A stretch of 45,293 nucleotides of DNA from a virus (lineage: Duplodnaviria > Heunggongvirae > Uroviricota > Caudoviricetes), in the IMG/VR virus record IMGVR_UViG_2571042653_000011. The stretch is one strand, 5' to 3'. Shown piece after piece: positions 1 through 18,247 of the stretch. Each line of letters opens with the position of its first letter. Position 1 is the first letter of the stretch. A program made the translations under genes and the position numbers. The notes below the pieces were generated by a model, which ran no database searches, was not told the DNA's origin, and saw only the letters and a program-made list of their open reading frames with translations.

Positions 1-573
1 ATGTTTTGCGAAGAAAAAGTAGCTCAAATGGCTGCATACCTACTTCTTAAGCGAGGTGGGCGCATGGCATATCTGAAATTGATGAAGCTGCTCTATCTGT
101 CTAACCGCAAGTCGATTTTGAAGCATGGCAGGATGATCGGCGAAGATAGCCTTTACTCTATGAAATTTGGTCCAGTCATGTCGAATACGCTGAACTTGAT
201 TCGTGGTAAGGCTGAAGGTATTGGTGACTACTGGTACAACCTGATAGAGACGAACGGGCATGATGTGTTGTTGCGTTCAGATCCGAGGGAAATGGATGCA
301 GACGAGGTCTTTGATGAGTTGAGCCGTGCAGATATCCGGATTTTAGATGAAATCTATTCTCTGTATGGGCATATGAACCGATTTGATCTCGCAAACATGA
401 CGCATTTAGAAAGCGTTTGTCCAGAGTGGCACAATCCTGGCAATTCTCGTAAGCCTATAGACCTGAAAGAAATGCTGATCAGTGAGGGTAAAAGCGAGGA
501 TGAGGCTAATCGTATAATTGGCAAAATGGAAGAATCTCAGAAACTTAAGGAATTTTCTTTGCAATTATCATGA
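1..573 (+). CDS. Panacea (DUF4065)-like domain protein, putative antitoxin-type component
   Basis: 190-aa ORF starting at the window edge; motifs KLMKLLYL and KFGPV resemble the DUF4065/Panacea (SocA/GepA-like) family as recalled; stop overlaps the next ORF's start (ATGA). May be 5'-truncated by the window. Confidence 0.5.
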   Translation: MFCEEKVAQMAAYLLLKRGGRMAYLKLMKLLYLSNRKSILKHGRMIGEDSLYSMKFGPVMSNTLNLIRGKAEGIGDYWYNLIETNGHDVLLRSDPREMDADEVFDELSRADIRILDEIYSLYGHMNRFDLANMTHLESVCPEWHNPGNSRKPIDLKEMLISEGKSEDEANRIIGKMEESQKLKEFSLQLS

Positions 574-989
574 CGGATTATCAGCCATACAGGAAAGGAA
601 CTGTGCTTGCCCCAACTGGGCCATGCAATCATCTTCATGTGATTTGTAATGATCCTGTTTATTACCCCGTTAACGATTGTTATTGTGTTTTAGTTGTTAA
701 TATTTCTAGTATCAAGGATGGTGTCCCCCACGATCCGTCTTGCGTCTTGAATTCTGGTGATCATCGCTTTATCAAGCATCCAAGTTATGTTGTTTACGCT
801 GAAGCTATAATTTGGCGAGTGGATAACATGGTTAGAAAGCAGCGATCGGGTGAGATTTCCGTTCATGATGATATGCCAGAAGCTACATTCAATAGAATTC
901 TGGACGGTTTTGATATATCTGATGAAGTTACGCCAAAGAACCTTAAATTTAAAAATAAATATTGCGTATCATCTATTGATGATGAGTAA
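570..989 (+). CDS. Hypothetical protein, translationally coupled partner of the Panacea-like gene (candidate toxin/effector)
   Basis: 139-aa ORF; ATG at 570 overlaps the upstream TGA; no Shine-Dalgarno of its own, consistent with coupling; AT-rich by eye; no family recognised. Confidence 0.45.
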   Translation: MTDYQPYRKGTVLAPTGPCNHLHVICNDPVYYPVNDCYCVLVVNISSIKDGVPHDPSCVLNSGDHRFIKHPSYVVYAEAIIWRVDNMVRKQRSGEISVHDDMPEATFNRILDGFDISDEVTPKNLKFKNKYCVSSIDDE

Positions 990-12502: not shown

Positions 12503-13498
12503 GTGACCGTGAGAGCACTACTGACCCCTGAAATTGCCCCGCGTATGGGGATCGTATTGTTCAGGCCAGGTTCAGAGCTGATGCCCCTGTTTATGCAGGG
12601 GCGTGTCCTGCTGGAGCCTGAGCCGGAACGTTATTCATCTTTCGCCAGTGGTGCCGTTCCGGCGGCATCACAACCGCTGGCGGATGATCCTGCCGTTCGG
12701 GCCGTGTTCCGCAATGAGGAAGTGATCCGTCGTGCTGGTGGCGTGGAATGTCTTGAAAGCTGGTTACTTCGTGAAAAAGGCTGCCAGTGGCCTCATTCCG
12801 ACTGGCACAGCGAGAACATGACAACAATGCGACACGCGCCGGGCGCAATCCGTCTGTGCTGGCACTGCGATAACCAGCTGCGCGATCAGTTCACGGAACG
12901 GCTGGAATCAATGGCAACGGATAACTGTGCCCGCTGGGTGTTGTCTGTTGTGCGTCGGGATCTCGGTTTTGATGACAGTCACGTTGTGACAATGCCGGAA
13001 CTGTGCTGGTGGCTGATTCGTAATGACCTGGCGGATGCCTTACCGGAAAGTGCAGCCCGTAAGGCACTGAGATTACCGAAGCCTGTTGTGCCGTCTGTCA
13101 CCCGGGAAAGTGACCTTGTGCCTTCGGTTCCTGCCACCAGCATCATCCAGGATAAGGCGAAAAAGGTGCTGGCGCTGAAAGTGGATCCGGAGTCGCCGGA
13201 GTCTTTTATGTTACGCCCAAAACGTCGCCGCTGGGTTAATGAAAAGTACACACGCTGGGTTAAGACACAGCCGTGTGCATGTTGTGGAAAGCCTGCTGAT
13301 GATCCCCACCACCTGATAGGCCACGGTCAGGGGGGAATGGGTACAAAAGCGCATGACCTCTTTGTGTTGCCTTTGTGCAGAAAGCATCACGACGAGCTGC
13401 ATGCGGATACCGTGGCATTTGAAGAGAAGTATGGCTCCCAGCTGGAGCTGATATTTCGTTTTATCGATCGTGCGCTGGCAATTGGCGTGCTGGCCTGA
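12503..13498 (+). CDS. DUF968 (YdfU-like) protein with HNH-like zinc-binding C-terminus
   Basis: 331 aa; C-terminal CACCGK...HHL...H...CRKHHDELH motif; GTG start at 12503 has a weak SD, true start may be downstream. Confidence 0.6.
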
Positions 13499-13515
13499 TT
13501 TTGTGGAGAACGTTG

Positions 13516-13881
13516 ATGCGTGATATTCAAATGGTTCTTGAACGTTGGGGGGCATGGGTGGCAAATAATCACGAGGATGTCACCTGGTCGTCTATTGCTG
13601 CAGGATTTAAAGGACTAATCCCTTCAAAAGTAAAATCCCGCCCGCAATGTTGTGACGATGATGCGATGATCATTTGTGGGTGCATGGCTCGCCTGAAAAA
13701 GAACAACAGCGATTTGCACGATTTATTAGTGGATTATTATGTAGGTGGTATGACGTTTATGGCGCTTGCCCGTAAACATGGGCGTTCTGATTGCTGGGTT
13801 GGGCGTTTATTGCAAAAGGCTGAAGGTGTAGTTGATGGCATGTTAATGATGTTAGAAATTGAGCTAGAGATGGATCGTTAG
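13516..13881 (+). CDS. Late-gene antitermination protein Q-like
   Basis: 121 aa from ATG 13516 (GGAGAA upstream); cysteine-rich segment ([16 protein letters not shown]); last gene of the early-right operon before the late region. Confidence 0.55.
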
Positions 13882-13965
13882 AAGACCTCTTATTGAGGGG
13901 GTAATTGAATCAGTTTAATGTGTGGGGAGTCGATTTATTCTCCCCATTTTATTTAATTAATTTAC

Positions 13966-14412
13966 TTAAGGTTTTAATTCATCAAGACGTTGTTGGATAG
14001 TGTTTTTGCTTGCGTTGTCTGTTATAGCCATTTGTTGTACTTGCCCCATTGCCATTTGAGTTTCCATCCACATATCGGCCCACACTTTTGTATCGTTATT
14101 AACTTGAGCGATAGTAAATCTGACTTTTGATACCGGGGTTGTTGAATAGGCATTGCCGATTAACATTTGTCCAAAAACAGCAGACCCGCCTTCCAGTTCT
14201 TTACCACATATAACACTGCTGTTATCAGCGTTGTAAATTATCAACCCTCTACTATTGCAGTAATTCACAAGGGCATCTTTGACTTTATCTTTTGTCGTAT
14301 TTTGATAAACCCCCTCAGGTTTTCCTGATTGAGTTTTTTTTATCAATGGTACGGAAGAAGTACAACCTGAAATGATAGTTGCGCTAAGTAATAGTACAGT
14401 CATTTTATTCAT
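13966..14412 (-). CDS. Lipoprotein (moron, unknown function)
   Basis: 148 aa; signal peptide with lipobox LLSATIISGC; opposite strand to flanking genes; AT-rich by eye. Confidence 0.6.
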   Translation of the reverse strand: MNKMTVLLLSATIISGCTSSVPLIKKTQSGKPEGVYQNTTKDKVKDALVNYCNSRGLIIYNADNSSVICGKELEGGSAVFGQMLIGNAYSTTPVSKVRFTIAQVNNDTKVWADMWMETQMAMGQVQQMAITDNASKNTIQQRLDELKP

Positions 14413-14456
14413 GTTTCTTATCCATTGTTAAGGGCATACCTACACAATTATTTTTA

Positions 14457-14485
14457 TTGGAGATGAATAATCAACCGTTTACAAT
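14457..14485 (+). promoter_or_regulatory. Late promoter candidate (PR'-like)
   Basis: TTGGAG, 17-bp spacer, TACAAT; downstream of Q and upstream of the late genes. Confidence 0.35.
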
Positions 14486-14540
14486 CGTAAAAAATCAAAT
14501 ATGCTGTTAAGAGTGGTTACTTCGCCACACAACTTAAACC

Positions 14541-14560
14541 CGCCGCTGAGCGGTTTTTTT
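14541..14560 (+). terminator. Short intrinsic terminator candidate after the late promoter (tR'-like)
   Basis: Short GC stem with TGA loop followed by T7, about 55 nt downstream of the predicted -10. Confidence 0.35.
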
Positions 14561-14658
14561 GTACCTGTAAACTTGGTGCAGTACAGTAAACACGCTGGTG
14601 GTCGTGAATACTGACCTTTTATCTTGCTGGCTTTTTAGACAAGAGTTATTGGTATGTC

Positions 14659-14886
14659 ATGTTAACCAGAAGGGAAAAAGACATGCTAAAACAGCAAGAT
14701 ATGACAGAAACCGCCGCCGCAGTCCTTCATTTCTTACCTGCTGACAAGTGGGTAACGCCACGCATGATGACGAGAACTACCGGAGTAAGCGAAGCCCGGT
14801 GCCAGTTAATACTGACTCAGTTAGTTCTGGCGGGTCTGGCGAAGGATAACGGCGGATACGGGAATAAATTCAGACGCTGCCAGTAA
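14659..14886 (+). CDS. Hypothetical small protein (75 aa)
   Basis: ORF between Q and the methyltransferase; alternative ATG at 14683 has a better SD-like purine run. Confidence 0.4.
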   Translation: MLTRREKDMLKQQDMTETAAAVLHFLPADKWVTPRMMTRTTGVSEARCQLILTQLVLAGLAKDNGGYGNKFRRCQ

Positions 14887-15036
14887 TGGCGGTTTCCTGC
14901 TGTGAAAATGGGCGGCTGGTGGGTGTTGGTAGCACCTGCCAGCCATTCGCTCATGCTTACTGGTCACAAGCGAACCACGGCCCACTGCTTTAGCGCAAAA
15001 GCAGAGTGAGCCTACCAGAGTTACGCTTACTGATCC

Positions 15037-16089
15037 ATGAAAAATACTGTAAAAATAAACAGTGTTGATTTAATCAACGCTGATTGCCTGCATTTTATTC
15101 AGTCCCTGCCTGATGATTCCATTGACCTGATTGTTACCGATCCGCCGTACTTCAAGGTGAAACCCAACGGCTGGGACAATCAGTGGAAAGGGGACGAAGA
15201 TTACCTTAAGTGGCTGGACCACTGTCTGGCCCAGTTCTGGCGGGTGTTAAAACCTGCCGGAAGCCTTTACCTGTTCTGTGGGCATCGCCTGGCATCTGAT
15301 ATTGAGATCATGATGCGTGAACGTTTCAACGTGCTTAACCATATCATCTGGGCGAAGCCGTCCGGACGTTGGAATGGGTGTAATAAAGAAAGTCTGCGCG
15401 CATATTTTCCTGCCACAGAGCGCGTTCTGTTTGCTGAACATTACCAGGGGCCATATCGCGGCAAAAGTGACGGCTATGCGGCAAAAGAAAGGGAACTCAA
15501 ACAGCACATAATGGCACCGCTGATATCGTATTTCAGGGATGCTCGTGCCGAACTGGGTATAACGGCAAAACAAATTGCCGAAGCCACAGGTAAGAAAAAT
15601 ATGGTTTCCCACTGGTTTGGTGCCAGTCAGTGGCAGTTGCCGAATGAGGCTGACTATCGGAAGTTACAGGCACTGTTTTCCCGTATAGCGGCAGAGAAGT
15701 TTCAGGAACAACAACTGGAACAACCACACCACCAGCTGGTGGCATCTTATGATTCACTGAATCGCAAATATTCTGAATTGCTGGATGAGTTTAAATCTCT
15801 CCGGCGCTATTTCTCCGTATCAGTCTCCGTGCCTTATACCGATGTCTGGATGCATAAACCCGTTCAGTTCTACCCGGGTAAACATCCGTGTGAGAAACCG
15901 GCGGATATGCTCAGGCAAATAATCAATGCCAGTAGTCGACCTGGTGATCTGGTTGCTGATTTTTTTATGGGATCCGGTTCCACAATAAAAGCAGCAATGG
16001 CGCTGGGGCGTCGGGCCTTAGGTGTTGAGCTTGAGTCAGAGCGGTTTAACCAGACAGTGAAAGAGATAAACGAGCTGGTGGGGAAATAA
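15037..16089 (+). CDS. DNA methyltransferase, beta class (N6-adenine or N4-cytosine), orphan, in the late region
   Basis: 350 aa; DPPY motif (IVTDPPYF) near the N-terminus and SAM-binding FxGxG (FFMGSGST) near the C-terminus; no cognate nuclease nearby. Confidence 0.8.
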
Positions 16090-16376: not shown

Positions 16377-16928
16377 ATGACTCAAAACTATGAACTGATT
16401 GTGAAAGGGATCCGCAATTTTGAGAATAAAGTTACGGTAACTTTAGCGTTACGGGACAAAAAACGCTTTGACGGTGAAATTTTTGACCTGGACATCTCGC
16501 TGGACCGTGTTGAAGGTGCCGCGCTGGAGTTTTATGAGGCAGCAGCCAGAATGAGCATCAGACAGGTCTTCCTGGATGTTGCTGCCGGGTTATGTGAAGG
16601 GGATGAGCAGTCGCCGGAAAAGCGCCCCGTAATTTTAGAGGCGCAGAATGTATGGATAACCTACAAAGGAAAGCTACCGGGAAGAATTACTGGTTCTCTG
16701 AAGACGCCACCGACGGCATTGCGGTCAGAAAAAGATGATATTGAATCGCCCATTGAAAAACTGGAGGGCAGCGTCGCTGATCTGAATAAAAAATTGTCGG
16801 TGCTGATCCCTTCTGAAGATGAAAAAAAACGCCGCGATGAGCAGTTTGCGGCGTTTTACGATTATTGCATTGAAGTTACTCGCAGGAATTTTGTGAAGAT
16901 TTTTGAGGAGGGTAAATCTCTTCAGTAA
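16377..16928 (+). CDS. Hypothetical protein inserted between holin and endolysin
   Basis: 183 aa; SD GGGGAGAG before the ATG; no family recognised; 3' end overlaps a convergent ORF by 53 nt. Confidence 0.5.
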   Translation: MTQNYELIVKGIRNFENKVTVTLALRDKKRFDGEIFDLDISLDRVEGAALEFYEAAARMSIRQVFLDVAAGLCEGDEQSPEKRPVILEAQNVWITYKGKLPGRITGSLKTPPTALRSEKDDIESPIEKLEGSVADLNKKLSVLIPSEDEKKRRDEQFAAFYDYCIEVTRRNFVKIFEEGKSLQ

Positions 16929-17136
16929 GCTTAATGGCGGACGCTGCAATTAATTCAGGAAGGTCCGCAAGGTCATCTGTCAGTGGATATGATGAAAAAT
17001 CGGCGGCAGTTCTGTTAAGAAGCGCTTTAACTAATTCCTTTTCCTTCTCCGGCAACAAGTTGATTAGAGCTACGACTGCTTGCCTGAGTGCGATTAAATC
17101 AGCAAAAGTTTGTTTTGGTAGATTTGTGTAATCCAT
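16876..17136 (-). CDS. Hypothetical protein, convergent with the inserted gene
   Basis: 86 aa from ATG 17136 with SD AGAGGTGA; acidic and Leu-rich; no family recognised. Confidence 0.35.
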   Translation of the reverse strand: MDYTNLPKQTFADLIALRQAVVALINLLPEKEKELVKALLNRTAADFSSYPLTDDLADLPELIAASAIKLTEEIYPPQKSSQNSCE

Positions 17137-17249
17137 AGTCACCTCTGTGTTTATCAGATTGACATCCTCCTCCCGCCAGTGCCCATCACTGGTGAGGTAA
17201 GATTTAACATATCCGGGGATTTGAAGCCGATAAATCCTGATAAATATCC

Positions 17250-17783
17250 ATGAACGTAAAAATCAGATACAGCCTGTCGGCTGCTGTTCTGGCACTGATT
17301 GCCGCCAGTGCTCCTGCCCCTGACATTCTCGATCAGTTTCTGGATGAAAAAGAGGGGAATCACACCACTGCATACCGCGATGGCTCCGGCATATGGACCA
17401 TCTGTCGGGGAGCAACGATGGTGGACGGTAAACCTGTTATTCCGGGAATGAAACTGTCGAAGGAAAAATGCGCCCAGGTTAACGCCATTGAGCGGGATAA
17501 GGCGCTGGCATGGGTGGAGCGCAATATAAAAGTTCCACTGACCGAGCCACAGAAAGCCGGTATCGCGTCATTCTGTCCCTATAACATTGGCCCTGGTAAG
17601 TGTTTCCCGTCGACGTTTTATAAGCGGCTGAATGCCGGTGATCGTAAGGGTGCATGTGAGGCGATTCGTTGGTGGATAAAAGATGGTGGGCGCGATTGCC
17701 GCATACGTTCAAATAACTGCTATGGGCAAGTTATTCGTCGTGACCAGGAAAGCGCATTAGCCTGTTGGGGGATAGATCAGTGA
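17250..17783 (+). CDS. SAR endolysin (T4-type lysozyme, GH24)
   Basis: 177 aa; N-terminal signal-anchor-release segment ([17 protein letters not shown]); catalytic E...D...T spacing ([18 protein letters not shown]). Confidence 0.85.
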
Positions 17784-18247
17784 GCAGAGTCGCCGCGATT
17801 ATTTATGCTCTGGTTATCTGCATCATCGTCTGCCTGTCGTGGGCGGTCAATCATTACCGTGATAACGCCATCGCCTATAAAGAACAGCGTGATAAAAAAG
17901 TCAGTGAGCTGAAGCAGGCGACCGCCACCATTACTGACATGCAGCAGCGCCAGCGTGCTGCTGATGCACTCGATGCTAAATACACGAAGGAGTTAGCTGA
18001 TGCGAAAGCTAAAAATGATGCTCTTCGGCGCAAGCTTGATAATGGTGGTCGGGTGTTCGTCAAAGGAAAATGCCCTGTGCCATCCTCAGCCGAAACCTCC
18101 AGCGCCTCCGGCATGGGCAATGATGCCACCGTCGAACTCTCTCCAGTTGCTGGACGAAACGTTCTCGGTATCCGGGACGGAATTATCCGCGACCAAACAG
18201 CACTGAGAACGCTTCAGGAATACATCAGGACGCAATGCCTTCGATGA
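17765..18247 (+). CDS. Spanin inner-membrane subunit Rz
   Basis: N-terminal TM helix then coiled-coil; likely GTG start at 17780 overlapping the endolysin stop; contains Rz1 in the +1 frame. Confidence 0.7.
18000..18206 (+). CDS. Spanin outer-membrane lipoprotein Rz1 (embedded in Rz)
   Basis: 68 aa; lipobox VVGCSS; proline-rich; SD AAGGAG 8 nt before the ATG; fully inside Rz in another frame. Confidence 0.7.

Follow-up and report, generated by a model that had tools for sequence, protein, structure and literature searches.

Why would a lambdoid phage carry, between its antiterminator gene Q and its late promoter pR', a single small gene that is read against all of its neighbours? The question is raised by the viral record IMGVR_UViG_2571042653_000011 of IMG/VR (Caudoviricetes), whose whole stretch of 45,293 nucleotides we call the window, and in which an open reading frame (ORF) on the minus strand codes for a predicted lipoprotein of 148 residues. 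The segment that carries this ORF is, by comparison of many related loci, a piece of exchangeable cargo, and the junction that holds it is shared by a wide range of other cassettes. With moderate confidence, drawn from analogy and genomic context, we read the product as an outer-membrane-anchored periplasmic lipoprotein that would be expressed by the prophage and would block the entry of other siphophages. Below we set out the evidence for the protein, for the junction and for the relatives of the family, and then weigh this reading against the alternatives.

The lipoprotein and its conservation

An earlier reading of the DNA, made from the letters alone (the sequence-only reading), had proposed a minus-strand lipoprotein of 148 residues with the lipobox ISGC, and the N-terminus bears this out. 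It is laid out as M-N-K, MTVLLLSAT and I-I-S-G-C17, as in the PROSITE PS51257 type of lipobox rule, with Lys3 in the n-region, an uncharged h-region, the lipobox itself and Thr at the +2 position. Cys17 is invariant in an alignment of 21 homologues (49-99% identity), every one of which has a lipobox-like tetrad, and a strict lipobox is present in 107 of the 144 full-length relatives at the top of a wider profile search (see below). The +2 residue of those 107 is Ala, Ser, Val, Thr, Gly, Gln or Met, and is Asp in none of them (0/107). Under the +2 rule, a +2 position free of Asp predicts that a lipoprotein is sorted to the outer membrane; with Thr here and Asp never found in the 107 relatives, outer-membrane (Lol) sorting is therefore predicted. 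The product is thus, by sequence-based prediction, a lipoprotein with outer-membrane sorting features, and we infer that the mature protein is periplasmic and tethered to the outer membrane.

An AlphaFold (AF2) model of the 148-residue protein (predicted local distance difference test, pLDDT, 85.3; predicted template-modelling score, pTM, 0.75) comprises the signal peptide, a conserved tether of ~15 residues, L-x-K-x-T-x-SGKPEG (KxTxSGKPEG), and a six-strand, three-helix alpha/beta domain. When the gene is compared with seven homologues, the proportion of nonsynonymous differences (pN) is 0.18-0.38 against a synonymous proportion (pS) of 0.68-0.84, which is saturated, and the Salmonella and Jejubacter copies of the gene give a dN/dS ratio of 0.07. 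Because pN lies well below pS and dN/dS is as low as this, a chance ORF is excluded; judged by these rates, the ORF is a real gene under purifying selection.

The phrog_3152 profile, annotated 'unknown function', matches the protein over residues 1-148 of 148 (1.3e-104), and scans with Pfam (cut-off E<=0.01), NCBIfam and PADLOC 2.0 assigned it to zero families; in particular, the Lambda_Bor profile (Bor/Iss, PF06291) was unmatched in the Pfam scan at that cut-off. A profile search of the sequences in the PDB gave no match below E=0.3, and a Foldseek comparison with viral predicted structures gave none at E<=1e-3, the top entry being a 'Lipoprotein' of an uncultured phage at a TM-score of 0.36. 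Among 50,697 records of isolated phages searched by tblastn, a homologue is present only in PhiR40_1 and PhiR55_1, where both copies are annotated as hypothetical. Literature searches on the lipoprotein family, the phage names and the Q-adjacent hotspot found no description of the gene, and the sole paper that names PhiR40.1 and PhiR55.1 has both merely as test phages.

Two other identities were considered for the protein and set aside. One homologue bears the UniRef name 'Type IV secretion system putative lipoprotein virB7', which we treat as an automatic name given by a lipobox rule, a type IV secretion system having no contextual support. A spanin is ruled out by the large size and the folded state of the protein, and by the Rz (17765-18247) and Rz1 (18000-18206) genes that the window already has.

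A cargo site between Q and the late promoter

The sequence-only reading had also placed the gene in an AT-rich region and in opposition to the surrounding rightward transcription, and it had read this as the mark of an independently expressed moron. The composition and the orientation stand, and the moron reading is well supported. In a 600-bp scan of the 45-kb window, the minimum of guanine-plus-cytosine (GC) content starts at 13901, where it is 0.353 against a mean of 0.506 (standard deviation 0.051), that is, ~3 standard deviations below. The GC content of the ORF is 0.376, with 0.315 at third codon positions (GC3), that of the cassette 0.364 and that of the whole window 0.505. All neighbours are on the plus strand, and the lipoprotein gene is the sole leftward gene within the surrounding rightward block.

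For a survey of the junction, IMG/VR was scanned for the leader motif (AAGAGTGGTTACTTCGCCACACA) and a PF06530-type Q was then sought upstream of each occurrence. Motif and Q occur together at 105 loci, 13 of them empty, with the motif 62-63 nucleotides (nt) past the Q match, and 92 occupied by 0.5-3.8 kb of cargo. The occupied sites fall into 28 sequence clusters with a cargo GC content of 0.30-0.42, and 26 of the 28 are exclusively minus-strand. The lipoprotein cassette forms a cluster (C2) that shares first place with one other, at 12 of the 92 occupied sites, and always stands beside the Q allele that we label 'Q0'; in loci of that Q allele group, four different cargoes share a common endpoint just upstream of TTTACA. 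At all 51 IMG/VR loci with lipoprotein alleles at least 98% identical, the gene lies antisense beside Q as in the window, and Q itself is 98-100% identical. The full cassette is present in 185 of 5426 complete Escherichia coli genomes (~3.4%). Because empty sites and 28 alternative cassettes occur at one junction, and because the GC content is unlike that of the flanks, the segment is, on this comparative evidence, a horizontally acquired moron of ~600 bp. It is a textbook moron on three of four criteria; the fourth, independent expression, is a prediction from a candidate promoter of its own and from a hairpin past the stop codon that has no T-run on the minus strand.

Some of the remaining cargo in the slot is recognisable. 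Models of PADLOC were matched by 6 of 10 other cargo proteins, and the cargoes include an HEC-04/OLD-like ATPase-Toprim protein (3.9e-47 in strain 300490, and 2.3e-36 where it is paired with a Dcm-like methylase), PDC-S20 (2e-176), PDC-S60 (1e-97), a PDC-M68A HNH effector, NsnA/PD-T4-2 with a methylase, a KwaB-like protein beside a membrane protein (Kiwa-like), and NA37-family and ClpP-like protease proteins. Several further cassettes are unannotated and have two genes, for a small multi-pass membrane protein and a protein of ~300 residues; those of phages cdtI (DUF6731) and 569R4 are among them. The slot is a cargo hotspot rich in defence-like genes, and the interval from the Q stop codon to the -35 element of pR' would be a recombination hotspot at which lambdoid phages exchange defence cargo. 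No description of a hotspot between Q and pR' was found in the literature searched, which was not exhaustive. Phage-borne defence hotspots have been described in P2 and P4 (Rousset et al., 2022; PMC9122126), and the present junction is like them in being a fixed intergenic site with many low-GC alternative cassettes, known and candidate defence genes and empty sites; it is unlike them in phage type, which is lambdoid here, and in the site itself.

The same slot holds a second lipoprotein in one IMG/VR locus (L134, cluster C20), where an unrelated protein of 159 residues, beginning MKKIALTLLSTLIITGC... and without a Pfam match, is encoded beside a related Q allele.

That the cassette lies between Q and the late promoter, a further claim of the sequence-only reading, holds by inference from seven phages and prophages. 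Across these seven, the sequence from GTTAAGAGTGGTTACTTCGCC on is near-invariant, and the ~30 nt directly upstream of this leader group by Q allele. The window, ETEC1748 and strain 300490 have a common Q allele (86-91% identity) and a common promoter sequence, TTTAC(A/G)ATCGTAAA...; 569R4, cdtI and ST540 have another Q type (44-51% identity to that of the window) and another upstream sequence; and in LR-60 both Q and the upstream sequence are its own. Empty sites consist of the Q stop codon, a promoter stretch of ~45 nt and then the invariant leader. Because the ~30 nt co-vary with the Q allele and adjoin the Q stop codon in empty sites, we take 14478-14505 to be pR' with a Q-specific element, and on that assignment the cassette would lie between Q and its cognate promoter.

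The features of the region are collected in Table 1. The candidate promoter of the lipoprotein gene stands back to back with the candidate late promoter, their -35 hexamers being 3 bp apart. A second promoter-like site on the minus strand (TTAACA at 14431 and TAAAAT at 14402, a 10/12 match) was rejected, its -10 hexamer lying inside the ORF past the start codon. The hairpin between the convergent genes is terminator-like on the plus strand, where ATTTTATTT comes next (-16.8 kcal/mol, z -3.9), and is without a T-run on the minus strand (-11.2 kcal/mol, z -2.6). The late leader was found in 1409 of the 5426 complete E. coli genomes. Among the leader carriers are phages with an unrelated long Q (Stx2c phages, mEp460 and Ayreon), where the shared sequence starts only at the first terminator hairpin (14537). 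An Rfam scan of 13300-15200 gave only a sub-threshold match to the small RNA STnc130 opposite the leader (14528-14664, minus strand; 24.4 bits where the gathering score is 55, E 0.72), which was rejected as probably due to chance.

Table 1. Features of the window from Q to the start of the late transcript.
Feature	Position	Strand	Details
Antiterminator Q	13501..13881	+	PF06530 2.1e-51, phrog_79; 126 residues from first TTG (121 annotated in PhiR40_1)
Low-GC cargo cassette, ~600 bp	13876..14476	.	From the end of Q to the -35 element of the late promoter; GC 0.364
Hairpin GGGGAG...CTCCCC	13924..13943	.	Separates the 3' ends of Q and of the lipoprotein gene, which converge here; terminator scan
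Lipoprotein gene	13966..14412	-	ATG start; 148 residues, mature ~131; begins MNKMTVLLLSATIISGCTSS... / MNKMTVLLLSATIISGC
Predicted signal peptide and lipobox	14362..14412	-	MNKMTVLLLSATIISG/C; Cys17 codon 14364-14362
Candidate sigma-70 promoter of the lipoprotein gene	14447..14474	-	TTGATT (14474-14469), 16 nt, AATAAT (14452-14447); consensus scan, 9/12
Candidate late promoter pR' with Q-specific region	14478..14505	+	TTTACA (14478-14483), 16 nt, TATGCT (14500-14505); promoter scan
Conserved late leader	14506..14658	+	Two terminator-like hairpins (14542-14561 with T7; 14600-14625); terminator scan
First ORF of the late transcript, right-flank marker	14659..14886	+	75 residues, phrog_331

Upstream of the cassette, the rightward genes encode RusA, a KilA-N protein, a DUF968/HNH protein and Q; downstream, on the plus strand, follow the 75-residue ORF, an N6/N4 DNA methylase, a P21-type holin, a DUF1327 protein and the endolysin. 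A second leftward ORF, of 88 residues (16876-17142, minus strand; phrog_2572, unknown function), separates the DUF1327-family gene from that of the endolysin. The DUF1327 gene has 183 residues in the window against 116 in PhiR40_1, so that the 88-residue ORF may represent a further small antisense insertion into the lysis region. At its left end (1-989, plus strand), the window is likewise of low GC content (~0.38-0.40) and holds a gene for a SocA/Panacea-domain protein (PF13274, 1.8e-18) that overlaps a family-less ORF of 139 residues; the two resemble a toxin-antitoxin or defence pair.

Relatives in tail modules and on chromosomes

A profile search over 1.84 billion representative sequences, with a cut-off of E<=1e-3, returned 823 relatives of the lipoprotein. 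Some carry a fused PDZ, TPR/YfiO-like or SHOCT domain together with an ordinary signal peptide, and at least one relative stands in an ordinary chromosomal context. Since chromosomal and domain-fused relatives exist, the domain is an old periplasmic or envelope module of which one branch was taken up by phages.

Within phages, the more diverged homologues occupy a different place from that in the window. Of the diverged IMG/VR homologues (40-70% identity), 24 of 26 lie inside lambda-like tail clusters and are co-directional with the tail genes, their sites being the H-M junction behind the tape-measure gene, the M-L junction and the K-I junction. The closest relatives outside E. coli, in Salmonella Choleraesuis (72% identity) and Jejubacter (70%), are both between K and I in the tail module, and tail-module placement is likewise seen in Photorhabdus, Morganella, Proteus, Haemophilus and Xenorhabdus. 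The corresponding tail junctions of the window are tight or overlapping, i.e., in the 'empty' state. In every host the gene is of low GC content (0.33-0.41). A virion or tail-assembly role, which the tail-module homologues might suggest, was ruled out for a protein that is exported and lipid-anchored; as such a protein is unfit as a virion part, the tail-module homologues are therefore to be regarded as morons.

From Enterobacterales to Pasteurellaceae the protein is highly conserved, with 43% identity and 25 invariant positions, and the conserved parts are the tether and the surface motifs GNAYSTTP and KVWADMWxETQMAMGQ.

Several of these loci have features of their own. One more relative follows J directly, with a gene for a TonB_C-domain protein among the small genes around it; such a TonB_C protein, of 100 residues, is encoded just downstream of J in a metagenomic prophage (L107, 2917-3219), in a block of small genes with a homologue of the lipoprotein, which hints at an interplay with TonB-dependent receptors. 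In the Salmonella Choleraesuis prophage (L018, 6470-6525), a strong intrinsic terminator (CCCGCC...GGCGGG with a T-run) follows the homologue between K and I, in the middle of the tail operon, and must be read through by late transcripts. In the Jejubacter calystegiae prophage (L019, 1655-6000), the interval between K and I also holds an insertion of ~4.8 kb with Arc-like, Bro-N, KilA-N and HTH genes; holding both the insertion and the homologue, this tail junction is a multi-gene cargo site in its own right. A prophage of E. coli EC12 that carries the cassette has at its end (L232, 28495-30001), after the tail-fibre assembly gene, a reverse-transcriptase-domain gene beside a SLATT-domain gene (retron/DRT-like).

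Exclusion of other phages and the competing explanations

In the reading that we favour, leftward transcription from the gene's own candidate sigma-70 promoter would supply the product in the lysogen, while pR, Q and pR' are silent. The lipoprotein would then act in the envelope and stop infection by other siphophages with lambda-like tails, either by disabling an outer-membrane or periplasmic component that the incoming phage needs or by interfering with the tail tip or the tape-measure protein as it crosses the periplasm. In function, this would be superinfection exclusion as exerted by Cor, Llp, the mEpimmI Lpp proteins and HK97 gp15. The leftward orientation would make sense as well, since transcription from a constitutive promoter that faced right would run on through the late leader to the lysis genes. 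That the tether and the two surface motifs are so well conserved suggests a conserved host partner and not a fast-evolving phage protein, and as to sub-mechanism we lean slightly towards masking of a receptor or envelope factor.

Several points weigh against exclusion. Coupling of the E. coli cassette to the resident tape-measure or J allele was tested among carriers and none was found: the lambda-type tape-measure protein of carrier strain 09-00049 is only 25% identical to that of the window, and the identity of J C-terminal domains among carriers is 61-96%, so that a strictly self-matched receptor blocker is not indicated. A family of 823 representatives that takes in chromosomal PDZ, TPR and SHOCT fusions outside phages points to an ancestral role that was envelope-related rather than anti-phage. 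Guilt by association with the hotspot is probabilistic, and the candidate promoter of the lipoprotein gene is only a 9/12 match to the consensus.

In view of known precedents, exclusion is nevertheless the most economical reading; the protein would then work like the entry blockers Cor, Llp, the mEpimmI lipoproteins and gp15 while belonging, by sequence, to none of those families. Llp of T5 is a periplasmic outer-membrane lipoprotein that jams FhuA and whose gene lies beside that of the receptor-binding protein (PMC9586334). Like Llp and Cor (phi80, N15, HK022, T1), the present protein is a small phage envelope protein with a lipobox, and homologues of its family also stand beside host-recognition or tail genes. 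However, there is no detectable sequence relation, since in the Pfam and PHROG scans only phrog_3152 matched; the mature protein has ~131 residues in a six-strand, three-helix alpha/beta fold, whereas Llp has ~60 residues and the Cor/Llp family ~60-80 with a conserved disulphide; and the gene of the window lies 20 kb from J and is untied to any one J allele. The mEpimmI lipoproteins Lpp021 and Lpp010 are encoded in the structural clusters of temperate E. coli siphophages and, when expressed from a plasmid, exclude phages by receptor type (PMC11893012). As structural-cluster lipoprotein genes, they follow the same genomic logic as the tail-module homologues described above, but they are not homologous to the present family by the tblastn search of phage records.

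HK97 gp15, the product of the archetypal moron, which lies beside the tape-measure gene, is expressed from the prophage and imposes a tail-dependent block on DNA entry (PMC3594210). It is related to chromosomal proteins of bacteria (YebO), just as the present family has relatives on chromosomes; it differs in being a small inner-membrane protein that is no lipoprotein and is unrelated in sequence. Ltp of the Streptococcus thermophilus phage TP-J34 is a prophage lipoprotein that excludes superinfecting siphophages (PMC3952083). The likeness lies in a prophage-encoded lipoprotein; the host of Ltp is Gram-positive, however, and Ltp is surface-exposed and has an unrelated helical repeat fold. Work by Bebeacua and colleagues in 2013 is said to have identified the tape-measure protein as the target of Ltp.

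The alternative that survives best, though we consider it unlikely, is a host-fitness or virulence lipoprotein that would confer serum or complement resistance, adhesion or stress tolerance like Bor/Iss or Lom, and from which the lysogen would gain independently of phage attack. Bor and Lom show that lambdoid phages have such morons (PMC3594210), a related prophage has an annotated iss gene, and Bor and Iss are, as is predicted here, outer-membrane lipoprotein morons on the minus strand of the late region. The cassette occurs in human and animal isolates, including Shiga toxin-producing E. coli (STEC) and Shigella, the wider family lies on chromosomes and is tied to the envelope, with fusions to PDZ and TPR domains, and its conservation from Enterobacterales to Pasteurellaceae would fit a conserved host partner. 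The protein differs from Bor/Iss, however, in position (Bor comes after Rz), size and fold, and it has no similarity to them (no Lambda_Bor match) or to known virulence families in Pfam and NCBIfam; the annotated slot-mates are all defence-like and none is a virulence factor; and host fitness leaves the repeated placement at tail tips across many genera unexplained. Because the slot-mates are defence-like, the diverged homologues lie in tail-tip modules and similarity to Bor/Iss is absent, the context favours phage exclusion over serum resistance.

The placement of the homologues also bears on a 'lytic conversion' factor, i.e., one that would inactivate a receptor or envelope factor late in infection and so spare the progeny from debris, as proposed for T5 Llp, with protection of the lysogen secondary. 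Since the tail-module homologues are co-directional with the late operon, they would be expressed from Q-antiterminated late transcripts, and Llp offers a precedent. We nevertheless hold this to be quite unlikely, as the gene of the window is upstream of pR' and antisense to pR and Q, where late transcription cannot express it and early read-through would oppose it, and the J receptor domains differ among the carriers of the cassette.

It is very unlikely, in our view, that the protein is an immunity-like periplasmic inhibitor of a cell-wall or envelope enzyme, with a type VI secretion effector or the NlpC/P60-JAB tail protein K of an incoming phage as candidate targets. Immunity proteins that are lipoproteins occur commonly, many homologues stand directly after gene K (Prok-JAB and NLPC_P60 domains) and one lies near a VasI gene; other homologues, however, are at the H-M or M-L junctions, away from K, and no known immunity protein or lysozyme inhibitor was matched in the structure comparisons. 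Such inhibition would in any case really be a speculative sub-mechanism of phage exclusion.

Least credible is that the protein is incidental and that leftward transcription converging on Q dampens leaky Q and stabilises lysogeny, as the paQ antisense RNA of lambda dampens Q expression: the minus-strand bias of the slot clusters (26 of 28) and the hairpin past the ORF, which without a minus-strand T-run leaves read-through into Q possible, would fit, but the protein is under strong purifying selection with an invariant lipobox and motifs, the tail-module homologues keep it in a different transcriptional setting, and the orientation bias is more simply explained by avoidance of read-in to the lysis genes.

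Beyond exclusion by this one protein, we tentatively advance a wider claim in two separate parts. The first is that the 148-residue protein would found an unrecognised and widespread family of exclusion lipoproteins, recruited from a Pfam-less periplasmic envelope domain (823 representatives) and carried beside tape-measure and tail-tip genes, which may stop lambda-like tail tips from crossing the periplasm or may block a conserved host factor on which the tips depend. The second is that the junction from the Q stop codon to the -35 element of pR' in lambdoid phages with a PF06530-type Q may be an undescribed defence hotspot with at least 28 cargo types, several of them unannotated. The protein family is uncharacterised, whereas its proposed functional class, that of entry blockers, is already known, and neither the family nor the hotspot will surprise a phage biologist.

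If the second part is true, the hotspot could be mined for new defence systems: the slot is easily located from a conserved Q and an invariant leader motif, and its unannotated two-gene cassettes stand beside recognised defence candidates. For late-gene control, the locus would be a case in which Q and the promoter that matches it keep their paired specificities despite the cargo between them. Although unannotated, the lipoprotein family is found in ~3.4% of complete E. coli genomes, and at least seven further genera have it in their prophages. Entry-blocking envelope proteins of prophages, for which this family is a candidate, shape the spread of phages in E. coli populations, including that of the Shiga-toxin phages with this late region, and they also affect phage therapy and the prediction of host range.

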